Assembly: GCA_964368745.1 (NCBI GenBank)
Contig: CAYJCT010000001.1
Coordinates: forward strand, 1-28,997
From: an uncultured Christensenella sp.
Lineage (GTDB): Bacteria; Bacillota; Clostridia; Christensenellales; UBA1242
DNA: 28,997 nt
Direction: 5' to 3'
Part shown: positions 90-28,997 of the stretch, one piece after another
Numbering within the stretch: the stretch's first letter is position 1
Layout of the letters: each line of letters opens with the position of its first letter
Notes under the pieces: model-generated
Seen by the model: only the letters and a program-made list of their open reading frames with translations
Told to the model about the DNA's origin: nothing
Database searches by the model: none
Position numbers and translations under genes: made by a program

Positions 90-959
90 TTATTTTTTTT
101 TATTGTCCACATTACTAATGTGCAAATACTCTTTTGCCCTGTTTGCCTTTGCCTCTGCTCGCACGCGCCCAATCACAAAATCCCCAGCATTCACATCTTT
201 GGTCACGGTGGTGCCTGCCGCCACAAAACAATTGTCGGCAAGAACAAGCGGTGCCACAAGATTGCAGTTGGAGCCCACAAAACAATTGTTGCCTACAGCA
301 ATTTTTTGCTTTGTCTTGCCGTTATAGTTCACAAATATCACTCCGCAACCAATGTTGCAATTGTTGCCAATGCTTGCATCTCCCACATACGCATGATGAC
401 TGACCTTGCTGCCACAGCCAATTGTGCAGTTTTTAAGTTCCACAAAATTTCCAATTTTGCAATTTTCGCCCACATAACAATTGGGTCGCATACGCGAAAA
501 AGGTCCAATCTTGCACCCACTCTCCACAATGCCCGACTCCACTATTGAGTGCTCAATCTCCACAGAGTCGTGCGCAGTGAAATTGGTTATTTGATTGTTT
601 GCACCCACCACACAATTTTCTCCAAAACGAGTAGTGCCAAAAATCATGTTAAAATGTTGAACCACACAACTCGGCCCAATTTCCACTTCTCCATCTATCA
701 CACAGTGGGAAAAAACTTCCACCGATTCATGAAGCACAACATCGCCCTTGATGATGCAGTGCGCACCCAGCACAACATTTTTTTCCAGCACCACATTGCC
801 GTCAATCACACAACCCGCCCCAACAACAACTCCATCGTGCAGTTCCACGCGTCCTAAAAAGGTTGCGCTAGGATGAATGCAAATTTTGCCTTTCAGCCTT
901 AGTTTGCTTATCCCCCTAACACCCCTTAACTTTAAAATTAGCTCTCTTAACCATAACAT
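90..959 (-). CDS. glmU: GlmU-like glucosamine-1-phosphate N-acetyltransferase domain only (left-handed beta-helix), lacking the N-terminal uridyltransferase domain; 289 aa
   Basis: The C-terminal two thirds carry the GlmU acetyltransferase motifs in order: IGPFSRMRP, IGNFVELKN, SKVSHHAYVGDA (catalytic His motif), NIGCGVIFVNYNGKTK, FVGSNCNLVAP, VAAGTTVTKDV. Hexapeptide repeats run throughout. There is no nucleotidyltransferase domain. The start is uncertain because no SD lies before ATG 959. Confidence 0.85.
   Translation of the reverse strand: MLWLRELILKLRGVRGISKLRLKGKICIHPSATFLGRVELHDGVVVGAGCVIDGNVVLEKNVVLGAHCIIKGDVVLHESVEVFSHCVIDGEVEIGPSCVVQHFNMIFGTTRFGENCVVGANNQITNFTAHDSVEIEHSIVESGIVESGCKIGPFSRMRPNCYVGENCKIGNFVELKNCTIGCGSKVSHHAYVGDASIGNNCNIGCGVIFVNYNGKTKQKIAVGNNCFVGSNCNLVAPLVLADNCFVAAGTTVTKDVNAGDFVIGRVRAEAKANRAKEYLHISNVDNKKK
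693..854 (-). repeat. Three additional 18-aa left-handed beta-helix coils in the GlmU-like protein
   Basis: GRVELHDGVVVGAGCVID / GNVVLEKNVVLGAHCIIK / GDVVLHESVEVFSHCVID precede GEVEIGPSCVVQHFNMIF, the point where similarity to canonical GlmU (recalled B. subtilis sequence) begins. Confidence 0.7.
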
Positions 960-1096: not shown

Positions 1097-4000
1097 TTAA
1101 TAATGATTTAATGTGTATCTTACATAACCCTGAACAGGATTTCCAGGAAGAGGAGGAACTTCTATTATCAAATCTCCACCTTCATCATACCAATTATAAA
1201 CAATAGAATAACTTCCTGCTGAATATTTCAATACATTAACCTTTGCAATAGCGCCACGATTGAAAGGGAAATCGTTCATTTTCACTTCAATTCTCTCCGA
1301 CTGCCATTCTGAGTTCTTATTACAGAAAAATATTCTGTTTATTGAAAGGTCTAATAAGTTGCCCGAGGTTAACGATCTAGTATTTGAGACATTTTGATTA
1401 GAATTTATAAAAAGGTAAGAGAAATAATCTGCAGGAAAGGTTAAAAGTGTTGTATCGGAAGAATTTTTTAGATAACTCAAGTCACCTGATCTATGAACAT
1501 AGTATATACTTCCATCATTTAACTCAAACTCAACCCTGTCAGTAGTTTCTAGTTTAAAAGCAATGGAATAATATTTTAATTCCCAACGCGCATGAACAGT
1601 TCGATTAGATGTTTCATCCCAATTGTTTAAACTATTTCCACTTTCGTCTGTATATTTCTTACCCCCCGATGTAGTTTCATACCAGCCCTGGAATGCATAA
1701 TATTGCATCTCCGGAACTTCAATCTCATACGACTCACCATATATAACCGTTTTTGTAGTGTTTCCGCTTGGAATGGTTCCTCCATTTGGATTTAGGGTCA
1801 AGGTAAACTGATTCAAACTTGCCCGTGCCTGAAGTGTGCGGTTACTTGTGACGGTGAACAAATAACTGGTAGAAGTTGAAACTCTTGTGCCTCCCTCATA
1901 CCAACCATCAAATTCATATTCACTGCCCGCATATTTAACTGCAACAACCGTGTGCGACGCACCATGCTTAACTATTGCACTTATTGGAGAAACGCTTGTA
2001 ATGTAACTTCCTGCTTGTGCAGTAATCGTATAGGTTATTCTAGTGTAATACAATTTCAAAACCAACTCAACGCCGTCTTCGTTTACTGTACCACTGGTGT
2101 TGCTTATTTCTGAATTAAATGTAAATCCAGTTCTGGTCAACGGTGTAACACTCACAAGTTCACCAGGCTGCGCCCATATAGTTTCAGAAGACTTCTCCGT
2201 ATAATTAGAATTGTAAATATTTTCTTCATAAATAATTATTTTATAACTAGTGGTGGCTGTTTCTTTCAACTTCCAAACAGCATAAATTTGGATTGTTTCT
2301 CCGTCTGTGAAGTGTTGTCCTAGACTTTTATAATTAGGATAGTACCAATCCATAATCGTGTTAAAATTTACAGAGACATACAAGTTGGAAGTGTCCACTA
2401 CTCCACCTGCCATCTTAGCCCATCCCAAAAAGTCATACATATCATCATTATTGTGATCAACCAACCTAAACTCATTTGACTTTAGGGTTTGACCATCATC
2501 ATAAACAAAGTTTTGCTGAGACATGTTGCCCAACAACTTTGCATAATAATTTTCCGCATTAGAATTGAAATTGACAATGTAGGTGCGTGGCTCGAAATAT
2601 GCATATAGGTTTACTTCTGATATTGTGCTGAAAACGGTGTAGGTTCCGTCCGACACAAACACATTTGGATGACCGCTTAATGCTCCGTGCGGAATGGTGG
2701 TCCAGTACCCATAACTGGTGTAGCCAAACTTGTAGGTGGATGCAAACTGCTGGCTTTCCCCTTGAGAAATGTTTGAGATGGTTGCGCTGAACGCATCCGT
2801 TTCCTCTTTTTCTGCATTGTTAGACACAAATTTTATAGAAAAATTAGATGTGAAATCTATTTCGTAATATAGATGCGGCGAATAGATATGGTAGACCACG
2901 CCGTCCACTTGTACTTCTGCAAATGCCATCACCCACATGCTACTTTGGTCAAAAGTGAAGCCAGAGTAAGTGTCTTTATTTTGCATTTCTGACCTACTTT
3001 TTGCTCCCGATGAAGAAATGTAACCACCGCCTGCTATGTTTGAAACAGTGTTGTCCCAATAAATACTACTTGTTACAAGCATTCCTGTTGCCTTATGCCC
3101 AATCAGCCCACCTTTGTAATTATCTGCAATTAACTGACCGAAGTTATAAACCTTATTAATAGTAACATCTGTGCTATACCCAATTAATCCGCCCAAATAA
3201 CCTGAAGCATGGCTGCTTTCCACAACACCAATGTTATAACTATTTGTTGCAGTCATTGATGAAGATGAATAGCCCACCAATCCGCCCACATAGTTTTTGC
3301 CTTTTATGCTGGCCTTATTAAAGGACTCCTCAATGGAAACACTTGCATCACTCTGCCCCACAAGACCGCCAGCATAGGCTGAGTTATTTTCATTGGAGGC
3401 AACAATTTCTGCCGTGTTACTCACTTTATCTAAAATTAATTGTGCGCTTGTTTTTCCCACAACTCCGCCCGCAACAGCAGTTACGCCACCCGCTGAGGAA
3501 CTTGCCTCTACCTTGCCATTATTTGCAGAATAAATTGTGCCGTTATTATTTATGGTAAGTGCGCCACTTGTGTGGTTACCCACAATTCCGCCGCCAATCT
3601 GAGTTGCAACAACATCTGCGTTGTTGATAACTCCGCTAAGCGTTGAGCCTGCGCTAGATTCCAGCAATCCAATAAGTCCGCCAGCAACAACGCCTGCAAT
3701 TGTACCACCGTTTGTGCTAACATTTGTGGCAGTAACTTGAGCAAAACTTGTGCCCACAAAAGCGCCAGCACGCGCGGATGTGCAATCAATTTTAACATCC
3801 GTTAGCGTTATGTTTGAGGCGGTTATTATTCCACCATTTTCTGCTCTACCCACCAATGCTGACAGCGATGAAGTAGATGACGAACTGGTGTTTTTCATAC
3901 TGCCAAGAGAAGTGAACTCAACTTTTATATTTTCAACTGTTAAAGTTCCTTCAGATTTTGCAACAAGCGCTGCTATGTTTTGATAGTCTCTTTCAATAAG

Positions 4001-7000: not shown

Positions 7001-10000
7001 GCTACCAGTGCTGCTAGTGGAAATGATTTTAGCGTTCACCAGTGTCACATCTTTAATGTTCACATTCTCGCCATATCTGCCCTCAATATATTTAACCGCT
7101 TTCACATAGCCAAACAAGCCTGCCACATCTCCGCCAATGCATGCGATGTTTTTAATGGTGAATCCGTCACCGTCAAAAGCGCCTGCAAAAGGATGTGTTA
7201 CTGTACCTATTGGCGTCCATAGTTTGCCTCCAAGGTCGATGTCATTCATTAGTTTTATTACGCCGTTGGTGCTAAATCCGCCACTGTTCACAAGATTTGC
7301 AACATACGCAAGCCCTTCAGCCGTGCCAACTTCATAAACAAAATTTCCATCCACAATTCGTACATTAACCGATTGTGTAAAGTTGCTCCACAGATAGTCA
7401 GCGTGAACATCTTTATCATACCAATTTCCCGTGATTTCTGCCAGCTGCCATCTCAACATTGGCATACCGTGGTTCACTTTTTGTCGGTCGCTCTCGTCCA
7501 TATTTTTGTCTATTGCAAACACAATCCATCTGTTTTCAAAGTCGAGATTTGCCTTTGTGTTAGTACCGTCGAAATAGTTCGACAAGTCGCGCGCTGCGTC
7601 CACTCCCACAATTGCTCCGCTGCTTTTACCATTTGAATCAAAATACTCAAAAGTGTCGTCCGCGTTGTCGTCAAATAAAACATAAACATCTCTTAACGCT
7701 GAGTCGTCCAAACTAACAGGTAACAACTCTGATGTCGACACGATTTGACTCGTTATCAACCTGCCCGCTTTTATACCGCTAGCACTTCCCGTTAGCAACT
7801 TTGAATTTATAAGCAGCCCAGAATTTGTTTGAACTGAGAAATTATTTGCGCTAGCGTAATTTATTATTCCGTTGTTTGTGCCCACAATTTTTGCTATTGT
7901 GGTATTTGAAACGGTGGATATTATTCCGTTGTTTATACCAATCACATTGCCCGAATGCGTTGCTGCAATGATTTTTAGTCCATACACAAAAGACACTTTG
8001 TCCATCGACGAAATCAAGTTGTTGCCAATGCTTCCAAACGATATGCTTAAAGATTGTGCTTCATTGTAATAAATCGACTGACCCTTTAGTTGAATGTTCA
8101 ACTCGGCGCTAAGAGTGATGGACGACCCACCCTCATATATAACCGCTTTTATAACCGCTTCGTCTGCGGGATTGATAAATTCAGCCAACTGAGAATAACT
8201 TGTAGCAATGCTTGGTCGCTGATATGTGCCCTCACTTTGAATGGTTAAAAATAACTCTTCGTTTTCTTCTGTTACCACGCTGTTATCCAACCATATAAGC
8301 AGTGGAAAACTTTTTCCGTTTTCGCTTAGTTTCCAATAACCCGCATCAAATTCGCTTAAAGTATTTTCGTTTGCCAGCATTTCGTCCACGCCCAGCACAC
8401 GACCAAAATTGTTGGAATACGAGTTTGTTTCTGCCAAATATATGGCGTCATCAAACACATCTGCGCTGAAATTTGCACTGTCCACTGCTCCCACAACTCC
8501 GCCATAAAAACTGTCAGATGAGGTTTTAAACAAGTCGTAATAGTCACTATCAAACGCTTGAACTTTGCTTATGGAATAAACATTTTCTATTTTCAATATA
8601 CTGTTTAGTTTATCAGTGGATGTGTGAACAACCGCTCCTAACAGTCCGCCCACTTTGTTTTCGTTATATTCGCCCGTCTCGTTCACAAATCGCACTTTTA
8701 AATCGCCTGTGGAATAGGAATTGGAAATTTCCGATTGAGTGGATGTTGTGGATTCTTCATCCACCGTTAATATGCCCACAAGACCGCCCACAAGATTTTC
8801 TGAGTTGTTGTTATTTTTTACTTCAATGTCTGTGTTGGAAACGCTTGCATTCAGTTTTGGATTTAATGCGTGTCCCAGCACGCCACCCACATTGGAAGAT
8901 GCAAAATCGCCGTCAATAACAACGGCGCCCATCGCCGCAATTTGTGAGATATTTGCATTTTTGCTATATGCCACAACTCCGCCAATGTTTACATTTTCGC
9001 CCGTTCCAGCAAGAGAAATGTTTGCATTTGCATAAAACAACTTGCTTGCTTTCACATTTTCTGTGATGTTTGCCACAACTCCGCCAATGTTAAGCACCGC
9101 TGCATCATTGCTATCCACATTAATATTTCCTACAAATGTTAGTTGCAATATTTCCGAACTGGCTGCATCTATATGGTCGGCAATACCAATCACACCGCCC
9201 ACATTAATCTCACCGATGTTGTTGCTATCAATTGAAATGTCCGCTTCAATGTTTAGATTGGAAATAGCATGCGCTCTAAACTCTTTGTCTGCGTCTAGCG
9301 CGTCCCCAGCCAGTGTGGTTGCCACACTTCCGATTGCGCCGCCAATAAACACATTGTTTTGTTCCGCTTTGGTTTGAGTGTAGGTTATGTTTGCGTCTTG
9401 CACCATGCAATTGGTAACCACGGCAGCATCTTCTGTTGAAGCAAAATTCACATAGCCTGCAATACCACCCACCATTAGGATGTTTTTAATGGTGGAAATG
9501 CCTATGCTTTCACCACCGTTGTCCACGATGATGTCAGAAGAAATCAGTTTCGAGTTTTCTATCACACCTTCATTTTTTCCCACAAGTCCGCCAATCATCA
9601 CGGCGTTTTCGATTGTGGCGCCAGTAGCGACTGCACTAATCTTTGCCTCCACTGACCCATCCACAAACTCCACATTGTCAAAGGTTATTTTTTGTGTCCA
9701 GCCCACAACTCCGCCTGCTCCCACCTCTTTGGTGTGGAAGAGAGAATTGTTTGCGCGCACATGAACATTTGACAGTTTTGCGTTTGTCAACTCACCATGA
9801 ATCTGGTTTTCCATAACTCCCACAAGTCCGCCCACATACACTCCGTCGGAATATTCACCACCAGACTGAACTATTAAATCTTTAACTGCAAAGAGCGTTT
9901 CATCTAACTCTTCGGAATACACAAAATCGCAATTTTCAGCATAGCCTGCAATTGCGCCAACGGCTTTAGAGTTGGTACCACTGATGATAGACTGGTCATC

Positions 10001-19000: not shown

Positions 19001-22000
19001 GTACTCTTCAATCAAATTTCTAAGCAGTTCATATTCGTTAAAACCATCACCATCAATAGTGTAATTAACTTCTTCTTGCAATTCGTGGTTGTCATCGTAT
19101 TTTATGACTCCCGCAAAACTATTAATTTTTTCAATCATGTACTCAAGATAAGTCGTGGTCTCATCCACATACTGTCCGTATGAATAGTTTTGAATACCAC
19201 TTGCTTCGCCGTATGTAAGTTCATTAAAGCGGAGACGGATTTGGTTTGCCTGCGACACAAAATAGTTGGTGAATATATTGTTCACATAATTCACCCACTC
19301 CTTGTTGTTAATAAATTCTTTGTCGATTGTTTGACTGCCCGAAATTCTCACAAATTTTTCATAAGTAGCATCGTGAAACTGAGCAGGAGTGTAAATATTA
19401 AAAGGCAGCGCCATCAGCCAATCCACTAAAGCATCTGTATTGAAATCAGCAGAAAACTCAAAAACTTCCACCCTTCCAGTGTCTTGATCTGGCTCATCAA
19501 AATGTGTTTTAAACACATTCACATATTCCAGCAACTGCGAAATAGCATAGTTTTCATACACATTTTCCACCATGGCATCAGCAAGCAAATACATTTGGTT
19601 TTCAGTTAGATTATTTGTGCTTATTTTATCTGCAAAATCACTGTCCAGCAAATCGTGTTCGTTTACAATTGCTATGAATAGTTGCATGTCGATGCTGCCG
19701 TCATCCAAAATGGCCACAACTATATCTTCAATGTCTATGTGCTCAAAATCTTCTAAAAAGTAATCGTAATCGTTGTCGTCAATGGAATCCAACATTGATG
19801 CGTCGGTTAGCAAATTGTATGATTGCACCAACTTTGCAAGCAGATAATTTTTATATATAACGCTTGCCACTTCCACAAATGAAGAGGTATCATAATCATT
19901 ATTCTCAATTAAAATACTACTTGCGCTGTCGCCATAAAACGCTAACAAAAATGTATTGTTTTTGATAGCATTCAACAACTCCACACTCGTTGCTCCATTT
20001 AGCGATCCTTTTTCTTCTGACTGCAGCATGTTTGTCAACTTATCTTTTGCCGAGATAAACATTGCATTTATAAAATTGTTTTGCATACTCTCCAGCGTGA
20101 TAGAGGCATAATACAATCTTTGGTAATAAGAACCCACAACCTGTCCAGTGCTTCGCCATCCATACGCATTTGTGTTAATCCATAGCACCGTATCGGCAAA
20201 AGTCACGATTGATGTAGACTCACTTACAGCCAACACCTTGTCAAACTTTTTCGCGTTTTCCACGACTTTTGCTTCCACATCCGCAAAATATTCCACATAC
20301 AAATTGTTGATAATTCCAATTAGGGCTTCATAGTTATCATAGAACTCGTCGTCTTCTTCCACTTCAATTTTTTTACTAAAATTGTTGTTAATATCTGCTA
20401 CCACATCGCGATATTTTTGGTTGATAACTGAAATGTCGCTTTCTCTGACTTGCAATCTGTCTATTTTATTGTCATCTTCTAGCAACAAATTCACTTTGTC
20501 AATCAATACATTTAACTGTTGCGAAAGCATGATGTTGTAAATCACATTGTTGAAGGTGTCGGTCAACATTGCAATTGCCAACTCATCTCCAATGTACTCG
20601 TCCTCTTCCATTAAATTAAGTTCGTATCCGCTTTCCAAAAAAATGTATTGCGCAATCAATTGCGGAATGATACCTTCATAATCGGGCGCCACTGAGTAGG
20701 TTTTTCCTGAAAAAGCATTTAGATAATCAAGCATACTTAAGTATATTTCACTTTTATCCATATACTCAAAATTGCCAAAGTCTCTGTAGGTTTCAAGCAA
20801 ATCAAAAGCCACTAACTCGCTGTAAGACAAAAACTTACTCAACTGAATGTTGTTAATATAATTCCTGTCAATTATGGCTGCAAACAACTTTAGATTGTAA
20901 TCAGAAAAGTTAATCGACTGCAGCACGGTTTTTTCTAAGTATTCAACATGTTCGTAACTTCTCACCCCAAAAACATCTATGTAACCAAGGTTATTTAGCG
21001 CCGCCACCAAATCGCCCAACTCTACCAGTTTAGAGTTTTTGACTTCCAAAATTTCAACATACTCAATTTCGTTAGTGTAGATGTTAGAAACAATGTCGCT
21101 GCCAAAAACATAGAAGTTGTTCACATATTCGCTTGGGTCGTTGGTTTGCATATTTAGTTTTAGCAAAGTGTATGAAGTTTGCAAGTTATAAAAATCAAAC
21201 AGATTTCCGTCGCTGTCGATAAAGTTTACCAAATTTTTCTTTTCGATTTCCCACGAAAAGATGATGTCGGCAAGGCTCACATTTTCCGCGTCAGTCACGC
21301 CCACATACGACAGTTTATAGTCTATGTTTGTGATGTCGCCAAAGAAACCACCCACGCGCTGGTTGATAGAGTTAGATAAATAAACAATCGGCTCTTCCGT
21401 TTGGTAATAAACAACATTGCCAAACACCGCCGCGTTGTTAACTAAAATGGAACCCGAAAGCGTTCCCACTTCCAGTATGCCACCAAAAATTCCACCAATA
21501 AAAATCCCTTCTTCCTCAACTGTATCAAGAGTGCTGATTGCATTTTGATTTATGTTGATTTTAATGTACGCGTCTGATATAAGGGCGTTGTTGACTGCCC
21601 CGAAATAGCCGCCTGCAAACTGTTGGTTGGTTTGTTTTGCAATAAACACAATGTCTCCAAAATATTGATGAGAAGACGAAAAGTTGTGCGCCACTGTTTT
21701 ATTTTTATTGTCTTTGCTGATTTCGCGGTTGAAATAAGAATAAACCGAGTTTTTATAAAGTTTGGATGCAAATCTATTAGAGTTATTCTCACCGCCCGTT
21801 TCCACGGTATAGTCCGTAAAATTAACGCCCGCAATTCCACCCAAATAGTTTTCGCCTGCAATTGCTGTGTTTAGATAACTGGCAGTATACTTGCCGTCCA
21901 TCATCTGCACCTTATTGCCCTCCAGCACATTTAGTGGCGCAGAAGAAGGCATCTGCGACAAAGCAAATTGCGTCAAGTCAGAAAAATATCTACTCTCGAT

Positions 22001-25000
22001 GTTTGCGCCCGCAATTCCGCCCAAATAGTTTCTACCCACAATGGTGGGGTTAGAAATTGAGTTTGTGATGCGCGCCATATTTATGCCCGCAATTCCACCC
22101 GCAAAGTTGTTTGCAAAAATAACTGACTTTGCGGTTACATTATTAATGGAACCTAAGTTTATGCCCACCACGCCGCCGATAACATACTTGTCGCCAATAA
22201 CGCTCATGTCTTTGGTTTGCAAAAATGATGCATTAATTATTGCACTAACCGACATGTTTGACATACTGCTAGAAATTTGTGATGGCAAATTAGAGTACCA
22301 AATATTTGCAAAATTTTCGTATTTTTCTTTTAATGCTTCGGATGTAGACTGCTCTACAAGTAGCCCCACAAGTCCGCCCACAACTAGTTTAGTGTCGCTT
22401 AACTCGTCAATAGTGTCAATGGCAATGGATGCAAAACTGTCGGCAAGAATACCGTCTTTTTGATAACCCACAAGTCCGCCGATAAACCCGAAAATATTGG
22501 CTGAAGAATTCCCCGAAAAAATCAGCCCCCTGCTCTTTAATGCAATGTCATTAATTTTTGCGCCATCGTAGCCCGCGATGCTATTACCGTCGTCCACCGA
22601 GCAGTTTAGTATCTCACTATTTTCTGCCCTGCCTGCAAGTGCGCCCATAAACACGCCATACTGTGTGGACGCATTCACTGTTAGATAGGCATTAGCGCTG
22701 ACGGAGACATAAACATTTTTTAGTTTTATGTTATACAACTTTGCTCCCACAACATTTGCAAAAAGTCCGCCATAGTAATTAAAAGTATCCGTCTCCATAT
22801 TTGTGCGAGTGATTAAGTTATGAATACTATATTGCACAATGTCTCCATTTGGAAAAGTAAATCTGCCGTCGTATGTTCCCGTGAAGGCATTTTCCTCGCT
22901 TCCAATTGGCGCAAAGTTTTCCGGCAAATAAATATTTGCCGTTTGCACATAGTTGGAAGACAGTGCGTCGTTCACCCTAAGCAAATCTTGATAGGTGGCA
23001 ACCTCGTATTTCACACCGATGCCGTCCGCCACGCGCACTGTAATAACTTCCACAACCCTATAACTGTTTTGATTAACATGACTGCGACTATCCACAGAAT
23101 AAAGATAAATAGAATACTCCGGCAGTTCATAAGGTGCCACTATCAGTTCATTTATTCGCACGGTTACCGTTTTATTTATATTGTCTACAATCGCGCTCAC
23201 ATTTGCGGTGGCGCTAGGCACGGCAATGATGTTGTCGTTGTGCACTCCTGCAGGATTAATTGAAAACGCAAAAGTCTTTTCGTTTTCTGATTTGTCGGTA
23301 TCAAACACCAATTTTTCGTCCAGAACATTTTGATAAACCATGTCGCGAATATCAAAAGTCATGGTGTTGTATGCAAGGTCGGCGCTTATGCTCTCCACTC
23401 GCTTTGCATCCACCACCGAAAAACTCACGCGGTCGGAATAAGTGTTGCTAATTGATTGTCCAAAAAAGTTATTAAACTGCTGCACTGCAAACCCTTCCAC
23501 ATAAAAGTCAAAAGACATTTCTGCGTTAATGTCGTCTTTAATGCTGTTTGTTTCCGCCCAAACCAACAATCTTTTACTGTCGCCACTCATCTCCCAACAA
23601 ATTTTGTGACTCCAGTTATAATCCTCATCTTTCCATTCTCCTTTGGTAATGCTCTCGCCTTGGGCATTTTTCTGGGGTATAGTAATCGATCTGGAACCGT
23701 AGTAAATTTTCCAATAAATTGTAGACGCAGCAAAAGTCTGAGAAATAGTCGGCAATATTTCCATGGAAATTTCTGCTTTGCCGTTTAAATCAAAGTCCGA
23801 CGGATTCACTCCGTCGCTGTAAATGTTAAGTGTATTTTTTGAATATATGTTGTTTGTTTTTGGTGTCAGCCTAATGTGCGACACAGGCTCCACCACAATC
23901 ACCACAAACTCAAACTCCAGCGTGTGCTGCTCGGTGCTGCTCACTCTGCTGGTTAGTACCACTGAAATGATTACTCTCCCGTCCTGCCTTGTAGAAATGT
24001 TTTTAGCGCTAAGAGTGTTGGTTTGAGAATCAAACGAAACGCTATTGCTCTCACTTGACCTAATCGAGAGGCTTAGCCCATTTGGCAAAATTTCATATTT
24101 AGTTGGTGTAGCGTTGTCGCCAAACAACACATTTATTACAATGGTTTGATTATCGCCCCGTTGCGCAGTGAAAGGCTGTTCCACGCGGTCCACGCCCACG
24201 GCGTCTTTCGACACAATTTTACTGTCGCACACATGGTTTTTAAAAGTCAGCCAAACGCTCTCGCCCGTTATATTAATATAAACCTGCACATAAATCGTAA
24301 GCACATATCCGTTAGGCGCCACAACTTCAATGCGGCTTCTGCCCACTTGATCGAGACGCGTGGAAATATTGATCCCTGTAACCAATCCATTTTCATTACT
24401 AATTAAAGAGATGGTTTCATTGCTGATAACATCCGCGCCTTCCAGTGTTGTGACCCTAACCGTGAAACTCTCGTGTGTTAAATTACTATAGTCTCCCGAT
24501 TCGCCTAACCAACTCGCTGCAATTCCTTTTTCCTTAAAGTCATACACCAAAGTATCATTCACGGACATAAACACCTTGTCGTCAATGGCGTCGCCCGAAG
24601 AACTCCATTTAACTTCGCCCAGTACGCCAATCAAGTCCACCTCAGCCAAAACTTCATCGTTTATTGCCGATGTCACAACAAGTTTGGTGCCCTCGTTAAT
24701 TTCCACCTCATTATTTTGTTTTCGCAGCAAAAACCTATGCGGATTAAGCGTGTTGTCCACCACCATCATTGGCGATGTTATTACATTTCCCCAAGTGTCG
24801 GAAATTAGAATGTTGCTGAGTTTTTCGCCCTCGGCGTCCACCACAGCAAATTCCACCTTTTGGTTGTATAGCGTGCCGTGCGTTCCAAACACCTGCACAT
24901 AAAAAGGTGTGCCTAGTTGGTTGGTGCTATAGTTGGCAAACAACACCAAGTTCTCTGCCAACAACCCGCTGTTTTCCACATTATAGTAAGAGTTCTCATT

Positions 25001-26167
25001 TTCGTTTGCTAAATAGTCTTGCAGATTGTCATAGATGAAAAGTCGTTCAGGATACGCCTGCACTTTCACATTCAGCACAATTTTTTCGCCCTCGAAATAA
25101 TCTTCATAACCTCTGTATTTCACAAAGAACTCTAAACTCTCTTCCACCGCAACGCCCACAGACTGTACCAAAAACTTGTTGTTTGCCCGCGTGATTTTCA
25201 ACTGCGACGGAACAGTGTTTAACAGCACCTGATATTTTGTATTGTTAATCATGGAATTTTCTGATGTAATGTTTAAAGGCTCGCCAGAAATAAGATTATA
25301 GTCATAGTTAAAAGTTAGCGCGCCCTCCCTAAACTTATCAAAACTGGCAATAGTATTTGTGGCCAAATCAATGTCAAAATTATAAACTCCATTTATTTTT
25401 TGTTTGGTCAAAAATTCTTCCACTCTGTGATTGTAAATTTCCACCTTGGAAATGTCAATGGGAGAAAGCACGCGCACTTCCACTTCATCGGTCTTCACCA
25501 CATCTTTGTTGGTGTAGGAAGCAAACAACTTAAAAGTTTCGTTCGCAAAATTATTGCTAACCAAAATTGTGCCATTGTTAATTGTGATATGCTGCTCCAT
25601 ATTTTCATCAACCGAAAGCGTAATATTTCGCTGGTTAGTGTTAAAGGGATGAAAATTTATGTATGTAAATTTTGTTGAGCCCGTAATTTCGCTTGCTGTC
25701 AAATCGGTCCACACGCCTTTAACAACAGGAATTTCGTCTTGACTAAACTCAAACGACTGCAACGGCACCACCACAAAAAACTCTAAGCGTTTTGTAACTC
25801 CGCCCTCTTTTGTTTTAACATTCACCGTTGCGTGTCCGCCTCCGTTTACTTTCAATTCGGTTGCAGTTTCTTCTTTAGAAAAAGTGGATTTACTAAGCGA
25901 CAAACTGGCAGTGGATGATGTTACCACCACATTCACCTGCTTGCTAACCGCCAAACTCACACCTGAAACTTTAGAATCAATTGTAATAGTTTGACCGCTT
26001 CCGCTCAACTCCAACTCATATCTGTTGGTCTGCGCATTGAACGACGCCCCCTGCACTGTTATCTCCAACTCCATGTTTCTATACTGAGTTGCAGTACAGC
26101 CGAAAAAAAGAGTGAAACTGCTAATAAACAATAGAAGTAATAGTAATAATTTTTTTCCGTTTTTCAT
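1097..26167 (-). CDS. Giant (~8,356 aa) predicted surface lipoprotein / adhesin-like protein with Ig-like arrays, eight GLUG-type beta-helix modules and InlB-B-type repeats
   Basis: Single open frame of 25,071 nt. Preferred start is ATG 26167 (SD AAGGGA 6 nt upstream) rather than TTG 26206. The N-terminus MKNGKKLLLLLLLFISSFTLFFG-C is a signal peptide II. Dozens of GGLVG/GGIVG/GGIAG motifs and repeated PIG..F.G.FDG.G..I.NL...GLFG module heads are present. The function is not established. Confidence 0.9.
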   Translation of the reverse strand: MKNGKKLLLLLLLFISSFTLFFGCTATQYRNMELEITVQGASFNAQTNRYELELSGSGQTITIDSKVSGVSLAVSKQVNVVVTSSTASLSLSKSTFSKEETATELKVNGGGHATVNVKTKEGGVTKRLEFFVVVPLQSFEFSQDEIPVVKGVWTDLTASEITGSTKFTYINFHPFNTNQRNITLSVDENMEQHITINNGTILVSNNFANETFKLFASYTNKDVVKTDEVEVRVLSPIDISKVEIYNHRVEEFLTKQKINGVYNFDIDLATNTIASFDKFREGALTFNYDYNLISGEPLNITSENSMINNTKYQVLLNTVPSQLKITRANNKFLVQSVGVAVEESLEFFVKYRGYEDYFEGEKIVLNVKVQAYPERLFIYDNLQDYLANENENSYYNVENSGLLAENLVLFANYSTNQLGTPFYVQVFGTHGTLYNQKVEFAVVDAEGEKLSNILISDTWGNVITSPMMVVDNTLNPHRFLLRKQNNEVEINEGTKLVVTSAINDEVLAEVDLIGVLGEVKWSSSGDAIDDKVFMSVNDTLVYDFKEKGIAASWLGESGDYSNLTHESFTVRVTTLEGADVISNETISLISNENGLVTGINISTRLDQVGRSRIEVVAPNGYVLTIYVQVYINITGESVWLTFKNHVCDSKIVSKDAVGVDRVEQPFTAQRGDNQTIVINVLFGDNATPTKYEILPNGLSLSIRSSESNSVSFDSQTNTLSAKNISTRQDGRVIISVVLTSRVSSTEQHTLEFEFVVIVVEPVSHIRLTPKTNNIYSKNTLNIYSDGVNPSDFDLNGKAEISMEILPTISQTFAASTIYWKIYYGSRSITIPQKNAQGESITKGEWKDEDYNWSHKICWEMSGDSKRLLVWAETNSIKDDINAEMSFDFYVEGFAVQQFNNFFGQSISNTYSDRVSFSVVDAKRVESISADLAYNTMTFDIRDMVYQNVLDEKLVFDTDKSENEKTFAFSINPAGVHNDNIIAVPSATANVSAIVDNINKTVTVRINELIVAPYELPEYSIYLYSVDSRSHVNQNSYRVVEVITVRVADGIGVKYEVATYQDLLRVNDALSSNYVQTANIYLPENFAPIGSEENAFTGTYDGRFTFPNGDIVQYSIHNLITRTNMETDTFNYYGGLFANVVGAKLYNIKLKNVYVSVSANAYLTVNASTQYGVFMGALAGRAENSEILNCSVDDGNSIAGYDGAKINDIALKSRGLIFSGNSSANIFGFIGGLVGYQKDGILADSFASIAIDTIDELSDTKLVVGGLVGLLVEQSTSEALKEKYENFANIWYSNLPSQISSSMSNMSVSAIINASFLQTKDMSVIGDKYVIGGVVGINLGSINNVTAKSVIFANNFAGGIAGINMARITNSISNPTIVGRNYLGGIAGANIESRYFSDLTQFALSQMPSSAPLNVLEGNKVQMMDGKYTASYLNTAIAGENYLGGIAGVNFTDYTVETGGENNSNRFASKLYKNSVYSYFNREISKDNKNKTVAHNFSSSHQYFGDIVFIAKQTNQQFAGGYFGAVNNALISDAYIKININQNAISTLDTVEEEGIFIGGIFGGILEVGTLSGSILVNNAAVFGNVVYYQTEEPIVYLSNSINQRVGGFFGDITNIDYKLSYVGVTDAENVSLADIIFSWEIEKKNLVNFIDSDGNLFDFYNLQTSYTLLKLNMQTNDPSEYVNNFYVFGSDIVSNIYTNEIEYVEILEVKNSKLVELGDLVAALNNLGYIDVFGVRSYEHVEYLEKTVLQSINFSDYNLKLFAAIIDRNYINNIQLSKFLSYSELVAFDLLETYRDFGNFEYMDKSEIYLSMLDYLNAFSGKTYSVAPDYEGIIPQLIAQYIFLESGYELNLMEEDEYIGDELAIAMLTDTFNNVIYNIMLSQQLNVLIDKVNLLLEDDNKIDRLQVRESDISVINQKYRDVVADINNNFSKKIEVEEDDEFYDNYEALIGIINNLYVEYFADVEAKVVENAKKFDKVLAVSESTSIVTFADTVLWINTNAYGWRSTGQVVGSYYQRLYYASITLESMQNNFINAMFISAKDKLTNMLQSEEKGSLNGATSVELLNAIKNNTFLLAFYGDSASSILIENNDYDTSSFVEVASVIYKNYLLAKLVQSYNLLTDASMLDSIDDNDYDYFLEDFEHIDIEDIVVAILDDGSIDMQLFIAIVNEHDLLDSDFADKISTNNLTENQMYLLADAMVENVYENYAISQLLEYVNVFKTHFDEPDQDTGRVEVFEFSADFNTDALVDWLMALPFNIYTPAQFHDATYEKFVRISGSQTIDKEFINNKEWVNYVNNIFTNYFVSQANQIRLRFNELTYGEASGIQNYSYGQYVDETTTYLEYMIEKINSFAGVIKYDDNHELQEEVNYTIDGDGFNEYELLRNLIEEYNKINYIIQYFQRSHENLDEDRLVKIDVSYRGTHEGVPTKFVWQDESKFYEKSEYDFINGRASFILLEDETVVSSGYEFETSTLLSANSFYIGYQTYFSAKINGNFVKTTKYTFTEEGAKKLTTQAFYYEENEDGIFIKIYNLLNAQYQYFDDAILSPYLSNFEICNFEGGDFLEGNVPYYRYVVGGNIMLLITERDFNYLLNDELQRYSLSPVEVSYYNSNASHYDSINNYYEKTSEWSGNFIFNMYTVEEMQDNGFLGIITLEGEIAGDYLLTDYNRYNELGGITGVLTHYKLINVATSEVVFVPIEAVEDYDIKNFDQYYNELVNDGMPIAFGNNPSVDSLELIVDLPPSDVQVTGNYDNLLVWQEQVFANNTITYLDDVVSLSYSQVDSKLNKIGAFYDFDNNKAISNTERTYSAVLDQKIAAANTYKLSDILNLVVIPPYLKNSKLNISTNSGIIEFVSDRGETNVLVKSTGTAVMTISSLFNPDLKVEITFNVRSNFNNFSINRSFIQNGQDELTELGQDSVLQVVKGSSEKIRLDVSGSFSINTIAGTYANIALAKSTNFNLGVRFYLMNDSGGIYHDNTSAIHSKFQINSKSFTYSVEPNGQYLIFMDIATISDIYVQGNEAQDEMSRLVAVPFVYGNNINQKALFQNVVSDGDDGYMIKLETANGYITGLGKVMNVRVVNGTYNVTTNFENQETTPLIDGEVVATVLTDDATAKLYLTIKDGNYFAIEGGDGSYKLLGLNNVEVQKLDADGNPIFMYEISDDSANFNNYYTFGKYQIKLERVLYFSDEDVEFDPANNNGSHTLKFKKYYFKINVQEDSLFDMNEVNNIALDFYVVSNENKIVSATFNLKITPQGLERIYTKHYSDVMMQTYDVGEGKVNTVYTVGQSFISDTLVVGYPGLLNINLYPEYGQIDWLEVESVPNGSVAIGLEQLVANYFTYSDVSVHSNLIFAGSYTSISQLSTPLANGRGIRLSRISLDYQMSGQTQHAFNGNFYIKTLLPTFYENQQNFVLIIRWSSFGVVHSSTLTIVPALTPRLNMSYKGLTYAPVAMGTEVVFDVETDGIIDGNFVLSDVNGVIATGSNDYLATQSGDNVFNNIKRVGVDGRNSQYSFILKYNEDIIGKDFSITLTVYRTILGRKYETTKSIVFRPAMFIVDSIAVENVVDGNMVGNFNQEYPLLIKINATYSTDLMYVTSAQVESIQKEIRQMEAKISSLGLYGEYGQNHDISMIFGDVEIGEESYKTGTWYLKSGNLYSNLSKNKTYNSFVIANGKNYFIENENDQLVRHNYAVLTLRNNLLNASDRIMAQTIISYGESDSGTGVYISSEASYHESDFTYLKTTEFGFNFYQYSDEHNPRPIYTKEEFLSMSADTHYILLADIELEYHTPINTPIASFDGNGYVIRIKSFDDFSASSTTKNVGLFGEVAEQTTLKNIIVELVPHENVLREQALDANGEILRTSADVEVVLGSLQGVRAGVIAGINRGVITNAIVVNNADRYRTERDDLLYYNLSKINQAEYEDRKEMYYETYIKNSTRLSDANRTLTSFGVSVSSADANITDVRIAGLVGLNDGYITNSNVENITVQGLSYVAGFVGENNGKISSSYFKDGNVVNFRSMSLAATATAGLVAFNNLGGEINLSYVLGRVHTFDDAHTRESTTGLSDEILQGFIGYNYTIGSDIINARRFGSVITSDLSATGFVYDNKGTIANSYTNILVNGDYNAGFAYFNTGKISNTYTMSSIPKELEYSSAFLANSSQGEGSIENSFYLKVDENDYTIIFSSYSNEELEEEFGKILLGIGEGEERELVVSNDYLDFLTDKSGEEISTVNAVQFGQYSTFGTFAFNSDYEINSTLLTQSVWFMSSVTSPLQQQVANSYFRHSDYIVGAPQLVSANLKNMSVKYANFIQPLNTGDSIFNVLETLYKQMGVDAAYKILEELRDGTYEGNDPIRYAAAKIAEFTSVRLADDMVLAFAESGVSTSVATMQTTIADETITSTTILSVLITAINSRNKVDPNSSSSYSYSSVLENMKGISIAYGASVLNPYIIDSAFDFNGFVAQIDSEGKATIDTQNRNLRMVKDISFEEEGITPQTYNISFSGDLEGNGMTIEELKLIAELGSIDGKKIDTLGIFSRVYKDSSGKIGNVRNLNIEVEEIKGSGVKYVGALAGIIESAYIYNITITGEQVVVSGLNAVGGLAGLVTGTSLIQNIDSSVSVKANLFNTANTYSSSRPINKEFNPDMGRYIVHEFMLFTGDNVSAVSYAGGIAGILNTSAVEGSEADVNTSGNVVRGAISIQGEVVGGLFGFVGSKAILNDSKLLVSPDMRLIASAVAGGLVGHSVGTITRSYVENENQKDIDDEIIRQIDAITPTNKTTANFYLNLPSTITEATSLYDGNPHYMGGVVGISHNSKLTFTFNRVDVANINAKYAGGLVGLSVGVNLENVYTTASVWSFVAYGGSVGLQTMFDGDALESGEGNSKNYATAQYIYHIANQGDMSDMSTAVVGSNKVNVRSLVSANMWKAPHKVINRKNYNIDASIAQIGSFIGNSTVLGKNFDEWFSGVGNDISQRVKNENIYFMYTYKSGSTNQALDEIGNANTNKFRWEEKTGQNARYTESGKYYMLNRRIDIDIVAGTYYDAGKILTEQEVLSLAEFGLGFASEDVTFIYQIINSTEYTFNNENYAYSGDLITEKEMYIYYQVTTAFGTYSVGDIFYSGLRNLGTMENGATFIDATDLKTHLDNGNLIYHSKTAIDTIYRFSRMQNFGSLRTIREFLQGVYIQAETADTMPSRVTNHVTGARVAGNGDVAMESVAGVSGNVFSSTTHWRSVVYNNWREKFWNGVVMNGAQDLKDTLRRSLISTYPFPKIKYQTTTEIIYVHTISDLIDNTEERPDATYIIMNDIDMVSESWVPLNSKDNPFTGTLQSSRNYETGELNNYKFTGMEAEIYGVNSFGLFANVENATFKSFEIEVSSINTSNVQHVGVLAGEARNTLFENIYIYGKDDQSIISGTNSKAVGAIAGYAENCDFVYSEELDETLFAVKDLIVQSGGEYSDGVYVGGLVGVMENQIHGELTNAKLSNVHVRANNSLFHTKEVGAGGVVGWTQKITFDNVEFVDGSVEAKISAVATGATIENAVMIGGLVGKNEGVIENSKLISSDIIVDNGGESIGISTIKNILMVGGIAGYVNFASTEDAAVVTNCMVQDANITYTQTKAEQNNVFIGGAIGSVATTLAGDALDADKEFRAHAISNLNIEADISIDSNNIGEINVGGVIGIADHIDAASSEILQLTFVGNINVDSNDAAVLNIGGVVANITENVKASKLFYANANISLAGTGENVNIGGVVAYSKNANISQIAAMGAVVIDGDFASSNVGGVLGHALNPKLNASVSNTDIEVKNNNNSENLVGGLVGILTVDEESTTSTQSEISNSYSTGDLKVRFVNETGEYNENKVGGLLGAVVHTSTDKLNSILKIENVYSISKVQAFDSDYYDLFKTSSDSFYGGVVGAVDSANFSADVFDDAIYLAETNSYSNNFGRVLGVDEMLANENTLSEFDAGYWKLSENGKSFPLLIWLDNSVVTEENEELFLTIQSEGTYQRPSIATSYSQLAEFINPADEAVIKAVIYEGGSSITLSAELNIQLKGQSIYYNEAQSLSISFGSIGNNLISSMDKVSFVYGLKIIAATHSGNVIGINNGIISTVSNTTIAKIVGTNNGIINYASANNFSVQTNSGLLINSKLLTGSASGIKAGRLITSQIVSTSELLPVSLDDSALRDVYVLFDDNADDTFEYFDSNGKSSGAIVGVDAARDLSNYFDGTNTKANLDFENRWIVFAIDKNMDESDRQKVNHGMPMLRWQLAEITGNWYDKDVHADYLWSNFTQSVNVRIVDGNFVYEVGTAEGLAYVANLVNSGGFSTNGVIKLMNDIDLGGKLWTPIGTVTHPFAGAFDGDGFTIKNIACIGGDVAGLFGYVKAVKYIEGRYGENVNIKDVTLVNAKIISTSSTGSAGVVAHVVLNTAQETNTYVLENVLTERFSVINDQDGLNTQYAYNSVQIAGARAGLVGLANAPLTVSMSENNGDILGYSTDSDITSFAGGIVGLANALLKVEMSANQGRVSASVAGGIVGIASGVTVIENSYNSNGDTDYYVDLGVYGEIENDDIKNSANVSGTNVGSFIGEMSGTSLGINYAYNSTQINKFVGVYSGGNFDKNINFLYSISKGGVSYGADDEKITATDYKNDKEEEGSLNEFREQAWAGFAWESVWGRDTSNNEYPVLMINMDYWIDHSSLPTYQGGNPEENPKIYSKAVALGSEEIGYYNETIMEIHNASQLAWVARMVNYFGYDFVGKTIRIMNNISFAGRAWVAIGAEDYAFKGTIEGYGHSITGLSAISYAAFDANKYPTTENENIAYNYVGLIGHAEGARISNLTLGTVAASGFNASSGDEYVGAIVGYAKNVAFSNLANNLEISSKGYAGGIVGYAEYSSDFSGNFFSGTITNNGNILNQSGDYVGGIVGKLQLENTATKNLSANLINNATITSSGNFVAGIAGEVTITGSFESIENWKNYGDVSGGNYIAGLAGRIVGGTYTDANIRTEVQSVLNEGSVSGGDYLGGLFGQAQKINIRNNNNTANTENRQTYEYYYIDHVYQDYNIGDVSGNSYVGGLVGDAKESSIMGEVKTTSGSVGGKDLYFIFVWVRNTGNVQVAGVFGGGVVGYLNNGIGDISSSVSVDYYAKNRIFLAQSTGAIASNGADNVGGIAGYNNGLIEGAVSTSTITLNTSSKYVGGIAGENYGAIYESAFNGDITDMAGTSTKVGAIVGVQSVSELVISKIQNTSSNTSIALIGNNEIGKVVMAINADSYILDGTSVGSGDAPIEFTECSVFEVVAGRPQVVYFAIAKPSLNGSNYYTLASEADYSKIVFLQNRRLGASPFVDDENPNVNVNVDDSEISSIEMNTNIALGSKNFSYKGRFNGNGIEFTVSAFASRDGENLGLFGVTENANINNVTVIINKLIERDYQNIAALVAKSEGTLTVENIKVEFTSLGSMKNTSSSSTSSLSALVGRAENGGIITASNITLTDVKIDCTSARAGAFVGTSFAQVTATNVSTNGGTIAGVVAGGLIGLLESSAGSTLSGVINNADVVATQIGGGIVGNHTSGALTINNNGTIYSANNGKVEASSSAGGVTAVAGGVVGKTSAQLILDKVSNTAEIVASNENNSAYAGGLVGQSDASVSIEESFNKASIKGKNYVGGLVGYSSSSMTATNSYNIGVVESSHASGYLGGLIGYSTDVTINKVYNFGQLIADNYKGGLIGHKATGMLVTSSIYWDNTVSNIAGGGYISSSGAKSRSEMQNKDTYSGFTFDQSSMWVMAFAEVQVDGVVYHIYSPHLYYEIDFTSNFSIKFVSNNAEKEETDAFSATISNISQGESQQFASTYKFGYTSYGYWTTIPHGALSGHPNVFVSDGTYTVFSTISEVNLYAYFEPRTYIVNFNSNAENYYAKLLGNMSQQNFVYDDGQTLKSNEFRLVDHNNDDMYDFLGWAKMAGGVVDTSNLYVSVNFNTIMDWYYPNYKSLGQHFTDGETIQIYAVWKLKETATTSYKIIIYEENIYNSNYTEKSSETIWAQPGELVSVTPLTRTGFTFNSEISNTSGTVNEDGVELVLKLYYTRITYTITAQAGSYITSVSPISAIVKHGASHTVVAVKYAGSEYEFDGWYEGGTRVSTSTSYLFTVTSNRTLQARASLNQFTLTLNPNGGTIPSGNTTKTVIYGESYEIEVPEMQYYAFQGWYETTSGGKKYTDESGNSLNNWDETSNRTVHARWELKYYSIAFKLETTDRVEFELNDGSIYYVHRSGDLSYLKNSSDTTLLTFPADYFSYLFINSNQNVSNTRSLTSGNLLDLSINRIFFCNKNSEWQSERIEVKMNDFPFNRGAIAKVNVLKYSAGSYSIVYNWYDEGGDLIIEVPPLPGNPVQGYVRYTLNHY
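1580..2845 (-). repeat. About five small beta domains near the C-terminus, mostly InlB B-repeat (Listeria-Bacteroides repeat) type
   Basis: YIVNFNSN...YDFLGWA...IYAVWK; YTITAQ...YEFDGWYEGG...SYLFTVTSNRTLQAR (divergent type); FTLTLNPNGG...YAFQGWY...VHARWE; plus FSIKFVSN...LYAYFE and YKIIIYEEN...TRTGFTF...LKLYYTR. Confidence 0.7.
2870..23010 (-). repeat. Eight GLUG-type beta-helix modules with heads at about 23010, 14920, 12865, 10380, 8220, 7335, 6058 and 4315
   Basis: Heads: YEVATYQDL, PIYTKEEF, PYIIDSAFDF, YVHTISDL, PSIATSYSQL (degenerate), YEVGTAEGL, EIHNASQL, YTLASEADY. Most are followed by DI.L...W.PIG..F.G.FDG.G and GLFG, then GLUG repeats, and close with a (F)..W...P.L cap. Confidence 0.75.
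14940..17990 (-). repeat. Second probable Ig-like array (approximate limits)
   Basis: About 1,015 aa, beta-rich, with similar linkers (LELIVDLPPS, LNLVVIPPYL, ITFNVRSNF, NVRVVNGTY, NLKITPQGLERI, TLTIVPALTP, IVFRPAMFIVDSI). Confidence 0.4.
23030..26080 (-). repeat. N-terminal array of roughly 9-10 Ig-like beta-sandwich domains (approximate limits)
   Basis: About 1,020 aa with alternating-hydrophobic strands and recurring linker motifs resembling bacterial Ig-like group 2 domains (FFVVVPLQSFEF, VRVLSPIDISKV, VKVQAYPERLFI, VIVVEPVSHIRL, FSVVDAKRVESIS). No GLUG motifs. Confidence 0.5.
26096..26167 (-). other. Lipoprotein signal peptide (SPase II) with lipobox Cys24
   Basis: Basic n-region MKNGKK, 17-aa hydrophobic core, and LFFG-C with the Cys codon TGT at 26098-26096. 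The lipobox is slightly non-canonical (Phe at -2). Confidence 0.75.
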
Positions 26168-26173
26168 TCTCAT

Positions 26174-26179
26174 TCCCTT
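26174..26179 (-). promoter_or_regulatory. Shine-Dalgarno of the giant gene
   Basis: AAGGGA lies 6 nt before ATG 26167. Confidence 0.6.
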
Positions 26180-26241
26180 AACAGATATGTTTTGTAAAGC
26201 AATCAAAAATATTTATAGTTTTTAGATACTTTAATATATAT

Positions 26242-26271
26242 ATTATATATAGGGTTAAAAGGCGGTGTCAA
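26242..26271 (-). promoter_or_regulatory. Sigma-A/sigma-70 consensus promoter for the giant gene
   Basis: TTGACA (26271-26266), 18 nt spacer, TATAAT (26247-26242): both hexamers match perfectly. An AT-rich UP-like tract lies upstream. The predicted TSS near 26235 is about 68 nt before the ATG. Confidence 0.8.
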
Positions 26272-26327: not shown

Positions 26328-26493
26328 AAAACAGATGAATTGTTGGTTTTTTCTGGTCGCGAAACACATAAATTATTTGATTTTTCGGTTGTAGAAAAAC
26401 ATATATTATTTGATTGTTTACTCACTAAAAAAAATAAACTGTTTGATTGTGTTGGTACAAAAATAACATAAATTATTTAATTTTTAGGGTATT
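26328..26493. repeat. Degenerate 33-bp tandem array, 5 units
   Basis: Units start at 26328, 26361, 26394, 26427 and 26461. The core is approximately ACATAAATTATTTGATTTTT; units 2 and 5 share a 20-bp core with one mismatch. Confidence 0.75.
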
Positions 26494-28212: not shown

Positions 28213-28274
28213 AACCCACACTTATTGTCACAAACTATACTGTTATTGATTGTATAACCCACACAGTTGTCACA
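28213..28274. repeat. Imperfect 19-20 bp direct repeat in the sleB-ypeB spacer
   Basis: AACCCACACttaTTGTCACA (28213-28232) and AACCCACACagTTGTCACA (28256-28274). Confidence 0.65.
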
Positions 28275-28923: not shown

Positions 28924-28997
28924 TTTATCTTTTCTCCTCAAGTATTTTTGTTTTTTTCTTTAAGCATTTTATCATTTCACATTAAGCATTTTTATCT

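Follow-up and report, generated by a model that had tools for sequence, protein, structure and literature searches.

What does a bacterium make of a single gene of 8,356 codons, and what might so large a product do at the cell? The window analysed here is the entire contig C1 (28,997 bp) of a short-read metagenome-assembled genome (G000; 1.18 Mb in 220 contigs, 36% GC, 90.6% complete). It carries four genes only, and one of them, on the minus strand at 1097-26167, encodes a predicted lipoprotein of 917 kDa, referred to below as the giant. We find that the giant is a conserved gene and not an artefact, and we consider it probable that its product is a fibrillar surface protein held by a lipid anchor, most likely an adhesin whose distal end is exchangeable. 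The evidence comes from the anchor, the predicted folds of two parts of the chain, the conservation of the middle and the uniqueness of the end, and the metabolic gaps of the genus.

A conserved giant gene and its predicted lipid anchor

The minus-strand open reading frame (ORF) runs from a TTG at 26206 to the stop at 1097-1099 (8,369 codons), and translation likely starts at the ATG at 26167 (MKNGKK...), 6 nt after AAGGGA. From this ATG the protein has 8,356 aa, a mass of 917 kDa, a pI of 4.5 and 11 Cys. The residue numbers used below (P0001) count from the TTG, such that the true residue is P0001 minus 13. The ORF bears out the 8,356 uninterrupted codons that a sequence-only reading of the window had reported, a frame whose chance occurrence at 41% GC is ~1e-230 by our own arithmetic, and the observation of a giant gene is confirmed as real. 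GC content at third codon positions (GC3) is 0.42 over the whole gene vs a mean of 0.40 +/- 0.05 for the long ORFs of G000. The perfect sigma-A promoter ascribed to the gene is also there, with 12/12 hexamer matches, though its spacer is 18 and the optimum 17. The features of the gene start are as follows.

1097..26167, minus: giant lipoprotein gene; 8,356 codons, stop codon at 1097-1099
26096..26167, minus: type II signal peptide with lipobox LFFG-C (P0001 14-37; the Cys is P0001 37, i.e., Cys24)
26174..26179, minus: ribosome-binding site AAGGGA, read from sequence; spacing to the ATG 6 nt
26242..26271, minus: sigma-70-type promoter TTGACA-18-TATAAT, 12/12 hexamer matches

The N-terminus (MKNGKK-LLLLLLLFISSFT-LFFG-C) combines a K-rich N-region, a Leu-rich core and a lipobox, which by sequence reading is a type II signal peptide and presumably fits the PROSITE PS51257-type lipoprotein rule. 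This is the sole hydrophobic segment of the protein. Lipoboxes are likewise present in three full-length orthologues (LVSC, ISAC and LSAC), and G000 encodes both Lgt (PF01790, 205.8 bits, contig C160) and LspA (PF01252, 107.1 bits, contig C78). The giant has no C-terminal hydrophobic tail, and searches of the 90.6%-complete G000 for sortase (PF04203), SLH domains and Omp85 gave no match. Because none of these three was found, the lipid anchor is the only recognised surface-holding route that we find for this monoderm cell. An anchor of the sortase/LPXTG or SLH type was rejected, there being no C-terminal hydrophobic segment in the giant and no sortase or SLH match in the 90.6%-complete genome, and so was an outer-membrane location, with no Omp85 match there. 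The earlier claims of a signal peptide II, of no C-terminal wall anchor and of an anchor type unusual for a monoderm adhesin therefore stand. The giant is not the only such protein, as at least six G000 proteins of >1,000 aa carry lipoboxes, including a 7,865-aa paralogue; among the others are frames of 7,865, 2,900, 1,586, 1,162 and 1,065 aa. As a plausible route to the surface, the giant would be exported by Sec, Lgt would lipidate Cys24 and LspA would cleave the chain, leaving its N-terminus in the membrane's outer leaflet, from where the polypeptide would run outward through the wall.

Of the 41 species genomes in the genus, 30 contain a relative of the giant's stalk region (2750-3780), 19 of these being among the 27 high-quality ones, and nearly all the relatives lie within unbroken frames of 6,000-10,545 aa. 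The full-length orthologues of G001, G010 and G018 (9,309, 9,072 and 9,876 aa) are co-linear with the giant at 24-31% identity; in the same genome pairs, YpeB is 39-41% and SleB 58-73% identical. Across the family, a profile of the stalk core matches 100 of the 151 genomes sampled and 43 of 58 genera; the matching frames measure 3,000-8,400 aa, and there are often several in one genome. Sixteen genomes of other families of the order gave one weak match. A word-indexed protein search with the stalk core returned two relatives only. The giant belongs to a set of giant surface proteins that spans the family, its own parts are known adhesin-type folds, and the stand-alone undescribed system that had been proposed is not borne out.

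These relatives also bear on whether the gene could be an assembly chimera or a decaying pseudogene, which we regard as extremely unlikely. The concern is a real one, in that the gene lies on a single short-read metagenome contig, its 1,120-aa insert and C-terminal cassette are found in no other genome, and the contig pieces of the one other run leave the junctions unbridged. Nevertheless, the 8,356 codons hold no stop, co-linearity with the orthologues is kept on both flanks of the insert, the gene contains no repeats able to mislead an assembler, similar intact giants are present in dozens of independent assemblies, and GC3 is normal for the genome. Repeat-driven misassembly is unlikely because the internal repeats are only 25-35% identical and tandem DNA repeats are absent; on the latter ground, and given co-linear, mostly unbroken giants in 30/41 species of the genus, an assembly artefact was rejected. 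The sequence itself occurs in one DNA run only, a manure metagenome at 2x depth none of whose fragments spans the junctions, and no RNA run turned up. In run X1, contig pieces stop and resume at 17995/17997, near an insert junction, an observation that is uninformative at 2x depth.

Module order, predicted folds and a probably exchanged end

Pfam on two halves of the protein showed Flg_new alone, and ten overlapping pieces were needed to reveal GLUG (PF07581), which exceeds its 20.5-bit cut-off in two pieces and is weaker, below the cut-off, in two others. An NCBIfam scan of the whole protein gave no family. Seven clusters of GGxxG rungs were counted, against the eight modules first claimed. 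Internal repeats are 25-35% identical by windowed comparison, a whole-protein self-BLAST shows nothing off the diagonal, and tandem DNA repeats are absent from the gene, in keeping with the description of the protein as a mosaic of highly diverged modules and, given its lipobox, as a membrane-tethered, non-repetitive modular giant. From the N-terminus, the chain is divided as follows (P0001 residues in brackets).

22997..26095, minus: N-terminal membrane-proximal region (38-1070); no Pfam match; 18-30% identity to orthologues
21347..22996, minus: GLUG module 1 (1071-1620); Pfam GLUG 25.4 bits (piece 851-1750); nine GGxxG rungs at 1243-1619
17987..21346, minus: acidic, in-frame, species-specific insert of ~1,120 aa (1621-2740); D+E 15-20%
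14867..17959, minus: stalk core, ~8-9 predicted Ig-like beta-sandwich domains (2750-3780); AlphaFold2 and Foldseek
10760..14866, minus: best-conserved core with GLUG modules 2-3 (3781-5149); GLUG E 0.008 (below cut-off); rungs at 3971-3998 and 4599-4833
8117..10759, minus: conserved head (IYRFSRMQ.FGSLRT...) and GLUG beta-helix module 4 (5150-6030); Pfam GLUG 39.4 bits (piece 5101-6000)
2357..8116, minus: GLUG modules 5-7 and linkers (6031-7950); weak GLUG; rung clusters at 6362-6517, 6868-7177 and 7509-7699
1565..2356, minus: Flg_new (Listeria-Bacteroides) repeats (~7951-8214); Pfam Flg_new 39.1 bits, near 8134-8190
1100..1564, minus: orphan C-terminal tip of 155 aa (8215-8369)

Structure prediction gives folds for two of these parts, an immunoglobulin (Ig)-like chain at 2750-3780 and a probable right-handed beta-helix at 5340-5890. 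For the stalk core, AlphaFold2 with 24 sequences modelled an all-beta chain of ~8-9 sandwich domains (predicted local distance difference test score, pLDDT, 73). Foldseek returned 331 Protein Data Bank (PDB) matches at E<=1e-3, and the best 50 of these 331 are all multi-domain beta-sandwich (Ig-like) structures, including NUP210, protocadherins, titin, alpha-2-macroglobulin, complement proteins, an RTX-adhesin extender, antigen I/II and S-layer proteins. The adjoining region 3781-5149 shows the highest identity of the protein to the three orthologues (24-44%, and 34-44% up to about residue 5000). For module 4, the model has a confident all-beta solenoid core (model residues 190-740; overall pLDDT 60.5, predicted template modelling score 0.66), and the strongly conserved head (model residues 1-187) is predicted without confidence. 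Its top 50 Foldseek matches are nearly all right-handed beta-helices or beta-solenoids, none at E<=1e-3 (best E 0.08). The highest probabilities (0.8-0.87) belong to the GLUG domains of M26 IgA1 proteases (6xja, 6xjb, 7uvk and 7uvl), with 3n6z, PL6 and GH55 enzymes, AlgE, Ag43 and tailspikes among the further matches. F.G.F.G.G-type heads recur in modules 5-7 at 6340, 6767 and 7358. PDB sequence searches with modules 5-6 and with a profile of the head and module 4 part (A1) gave no match. The N-terminal region (38-1070), presumed to be Ig-like, can be aligned to the start of the 7,865-aa paralogue (contig C2). Three leads from the ESM Atlas were set aside and are unused as evidence: a weak Big_2 lead only for 2750-3780, chance-level phage-tail labels for the insert (0.8, few shared features) and a weak DUF6134/DUF3108 lead for the tip.

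The likeness of module 4 to the M26 IgA1 proteases of S. pneumoniae (6xja, 6xjb and 7jgj) and G. haemolysans (7uvk and 7uvl) and to B. ovatus BACOVA_03286 (3n6z) lies in GLUG and in the predicted right-handed beta-helix, at E of only 0.15-0.5 and 16-17% identity over ~300 columns. Unlike those proteases, the giant has no M26 domain, G5 or LPXTG, and it strings seven GLUG modules in one chain; membership in the M26 family was rejected because neither Pfam nor NCBIfam finds a peptidase family over the whole length. The same matches raise the alternative of a surface-tethered enzyme or substrate-capture scaffold, in which the beta-helix modules would cut or modify polysaccharides or proteins to feed a cell with few transporters and pathways. 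We judge this unlikely. In its favour, module 4 has its lowest E-values with a PL6 alginate lyase and a GH55 glucanase, its matches extend to AlgE epimerases and phage depolymerases, and GLUG domains are present in M26 IgA1 proteases. Those Foldseek matches, however, reach probabilities of only 0.02-0.4 with E no lower than 0.08, and no catalytic family, the M26 protease domain included, is found by Pfam or NCBIfam along the whole protein. The GLUG domain is also non-catalytic in IgA1 proteases, which counts against an enzymatic role.

The insert and the C-terminal end set the giant apart from its relatives. The insert (1621-2740) is unaligned in the three orthologues and has no match in the 40 other genomes of the genus or in an index of 5.8 billion proteins. 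BLAST finds no counterpart of the C-terminal 670 aa in G001, G010 or G018, while the C-terminal 1,500 aa of the giants of these three genomes are homologous to one another (29-41% identity). Within this end, the Flg_new part resembles other large G000 proteins (on C10, C32, C41 and C116), and an exhaustive search found 7,024 library proteins matching the C-terminus, nearly all via Flg_new and rarely covering the tip. The 155-aa tip is unique among the 41 genomes of the genus save for one marginal match (E 0.006), and GC3 over the last 356 codons is 0.29 vs 0.42 for the whole gene. The non-matching C-terminus, the unique tip and the drop in GC3 support the separate claim that the tip may be a swapped cassette; the distal end is likely exchangeable and likely the recognition part. 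The giants of G001, G010 and G018 end in a tail of ~100 aa, absent from this giant, that is rich in Cys and His with many C..C and H.H spacings and may be a metal-binding or disulfide-rich terminal domain.

A variable end on a long fibre also recalls contact-dependent toxins of the WapA/CdiA type; on this reading, the fibre would deliver a toxic tip to neighbouring cells. The long beta-helix fibre and a genus-unique, compositionally shifted tip of 155 aa are what polymorphic toxins would display. Against this, the 137 bp between the giant's stop and the next gene hold no ORF of at least 60 aa and thus leave no room for an immunity gene, no toxin family or pre-toxin motif was found in the giant, the tip follows adhesin-type Flg_new repeats, and the sole lead for the tip is the language-model likeness to DUF6134/DUF3108 set aside above. 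We consider a toxin fibre very unlikely.

Proposed attachment and its alternatives

Which known class does this architecture resemble? Like the Gram-positive fibrillar adhesins (Monzon et al., PMC8286594, PMC9210967), the giant is very long, fast-evolving and, by prediction, exported and surface-attached, and it joins tandem Ig-like stalk domains to Flg_new stalk domains; Flg_new is counted among the stalk domains of these adhesins (PMC9210967), and beta-solenoid regions are also known in the class (PMC8286594, PMC9210967). A protein of 8,356 aa with a tandem domain stalk (~8-9 Ig-like domains plus Flg_new) and high divergence is what we find here. It differs from the class in its predicted anchor, an N-terminal lipid and not a C-terminal LPXTG or wall-binding domain, the lipobox not being among the usual anchors, as well as in having no near-identical repeats and no known adhesive domain and in its extreme mass. 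Because the anchor is an N-terminal lipid, the polarity would be reversed, with the C-terminus as the distal end. Candidate adhesive domains are the beta-helix modules and the orphan tip.

In the model that we favour, a lipid-anchored adhesive fibre, the gene would be transcribed alone from its strong vegetative-type promoter, and the chain would lead from the N-terminal region through seven GLUG beta-helix modules and the Ig-like chain to the Flg_new repeats and the orphan tip. The conserved middle would serve as the shaft and the exchangeable C-terminal end as the recognition part. With an Ig-like domain taken as ~4 nm and a beta-helix rung as ~0.48 nm, an extended fibre of 150-250 nm is a plausible estimate. 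Such a fibre would probably hold a cell deficient in fatty-acid synthesis and ATP synthase to a partner microbe, mucus or a food particle.

The metabolic gaps on which this last step leans are seen across the genus. Ketoacyl synthase (PF00109) is found in 0 of the 41 genomes of the genus and in all 14 control genomes, and ATP synthase alpha/beta (PF00006) is above cut-off in 2 of the 41, both lower-quality bins, and in 14/14 controls, which implies lipid auxotrophy and the lack of an F- or V-type ATPase in spore-forming Clostridia. By gene content, these traits fit the published description of UBA1242 (Christensenellales) as probable obligate symbionts or parasites with a small genome, sporulation genes, no lipid synthesis and no ATP synthase (PMC12306168). 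That work proposes a partner-dependent life for UBA1242 and names no contact machinery; giant lipoproteins are mentioned neither there nor in a chicken-gut study (PMC13155120). The genus-wide losses lend indirect support to attachment or epibiosis. The sources of the genus relatives include Hadza gut and goat caecum. The giant gene takes up ~2% of the genome, and exported-looking frames of at least 1,000 aa sum to ~10% of the G000 assembly by our own estimate; with ~2% spent on the giant and about a tenth on large exported proteins, the cell surface appears as the centre of this organism's biology.

The same investment could serve protection, many such fibres forming a brush or coat, a thick acidic layer that would shield the wall from phages, host immune factors and enzymes without having one particular target. 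The very acidic pI of 4.5, the ~10% of the genome (an estimate) devoted to large exported proteins, Foldseek matches to the S-layer proteins Sap, EA1, SbsB and RsaA, and a fast divergence and replaced distal end that would also fit evasion are all consistent with a coat. Yet the S-layer matches are generic to Ig chains and beta-helices at ~8-10% identity, no module for a lattice or an anchor, SLH included, was found, a 917-kDa monomer would be a costly building block, and Flg_new ends are typical of adhesins. We therefore hold a coat to be possible but rather doubtful, and an adhesive fibre remains the reading that we prefer.

Comparable giants have been noted elsewhere. A survey mentions in passing proteins of 10,000-30,000 aa with Listeria-Bacteroides repeats in gut Clostridia, for which surfaces of a host or of prey were proposed as binding targets (West-Roberts et al., bioRxiv 10.1101/2023.11.21.568195). 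The giant shares with these their very large size, predicted surface location, gut Clostridia hosts and Flg_new; by their description they are dominated by propeller or repeat domains, whereas the giant is a lipoprotein with a conserved, non-repetitive core in a reduced-genome family. A further speculation, to which we give little weight, is that the giant lipoproteins of this family could be the means by which obligately partner-dependent, spore-forming Gram-positives attach and perhaps feed. They would then parallel, within the Bacillota, the host-attachment giants known from Patescibacteria and Omnitrophota, and their exchangeable C-terminal end would select the partner cell supplying lipids and other metabolites. 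Among the reduced-genome, host-dependent relatives within the Bacillota, the Mollicutes use lipid-anchored variable surface proteins for attachment; they have neither wall nor spores, and their lipoproteins are far smaller than the giant.

Several results weigh against an adhesive fibre as we describe it. Neither Pfam nor NCBIfam finds a known adhesive domain anywhere in the giant, and no ligand site was found in it. The beta-helix of module 4 matches solved structures weakly (best E 0.08), and the predicted folds cover 2750-3780 and the module 4 region. Among the 27 high-quality genomes of the genus, eight have no match to the giant, and because a different protein of 3,000-4,800 aa occupies the locus in the four of these eight that were examined, the giant is dispensable or replaceable. 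The gene is known here from DNA alone, in one low-depth run, and the insert junctions rest on a single short-read assembly.

Our search of the published literature found no description of the giant and nothing relevant on giant GLUG proteins. The giant probably serves as a long fibre for attachment and belongs to a family of giants that, to judge from their genomes, are kept by tiny-genome, nutritionally dependent gut Clostridia, and UBA1242-like genome-reduced gut Clostridia are widespread in animal and human guts. It would be an unusually large substrate of the lipoprotein pathway and would exemplify an adhesin of reversed polarity compared with sortase-anchored ones. The most useful handles are the insert peculiar to this species, the swapped end and the host's metabolic dependence; the conserved shaft and swapped distal end could serve as reagents in the search for a partner or substrate (antibodies, binding probes and metaproteomic peptides).

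Neighbouring genes and other large frames

The remaining genes of the window lie on both sides of the giant.

28270..28941, minus: sleB, spore cortex-lytic enzyme; Pfam Hydrolase_2 and PG_binding_1
26840..28177, minus: ypeB, upstream neighbour; Pfam YPEB_N and YPEB_PepSY1-2
90..959, minus: hexapeptide-repeat GlmU-C-like acetyltransferase, downstream; Pfam Hexapep and Hexapep_GlmU

With sleB and ypeB directly upstream, the assignment of the giant to a spore-former holds, and the possibility arises that it belongs to the spore surface, for instance as an exosporium fibre or appendage. The giant adjoins sleB and ypeB here and at three orthologous loci (G001, G010 and G018), which share one order (spoIIR-like gene, sleB, ypeB, giant), and the C2 paralogue lies beside a gene read by eye as spoIIID-like. 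At the three orthologous loci, a terminator hairpin follows ypeB and a sigma-70 promoter with 11/12 matches precedes the giant; a terminator and an independent sigma-70 (sigma-A-type) promoter separate the two genes in G000 as well, which argues that the giant is its own vegetative-type transcription unit outside the germination operon. Co-transcription with sleB-ypeB was rejected on the same grounds. Moreover, the four examined genomes of the genus that lack an orthologue (L062-L065; G021, G048, G008 and G053) keep sleB-ypeB, and synteny within a single genus is weak evidence of a functional link. A role on the spore is, in our view, highly improbable. After ypeB, these four genomes carry a rho-like gene and a convergent gene for a protein of 3,075-4,838 aa with an N-terminal membrane anchor, so that this position again has a large surface protein.

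The ypeB-giant intergenic region spans 633 bp here vs ~110-320 bp at the three orthologous loci. It contains two repeat arrays between ypeB and the giant promoter (26329-26486, period 33, ~4-5 units; 26525-26584, period 22, ~2.7 units) that are not conserved at those loci. Downstream, the acetyltransferase at 90-959 is a stand-alone protein of 289 aa with a left-handed beta-helix that resembles the C-terminal half of GlmU only. It is not kept at the orthologous loci, where other genes take its place in G001, G010 and G018. The statement that the window holds no secretion or glycosylation genes is true, with the proviso that there are just four genes to consider, one of them this GlmU-C-like acetyltransferase. 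On the 3' side of the giant in G010 (L013/L014) and G001 (L011), 2-3 tandem paralogous genes of ~350 aa (MENNINRLTANEY..., MRDKILDAIISYKP..., MTTEQEAMMISLLKYKP...) are found that are absent from the window.

Elsewhere in G000, a second giant gene (contig C2:3203-26797, plus strand) encodes the 7,865-aa paralogue, whose lipobox is VFAAC. The two giants are distantly related, with 24-27% identity in patches that include the N-terminus, and the adjoining spoIIID-like gene is putative. Further G000 frames measure 3,511, 3,006, 2,900, 2,620, 2,255 and 2,021 aa, several of them with GLUG or Flg_new parts.

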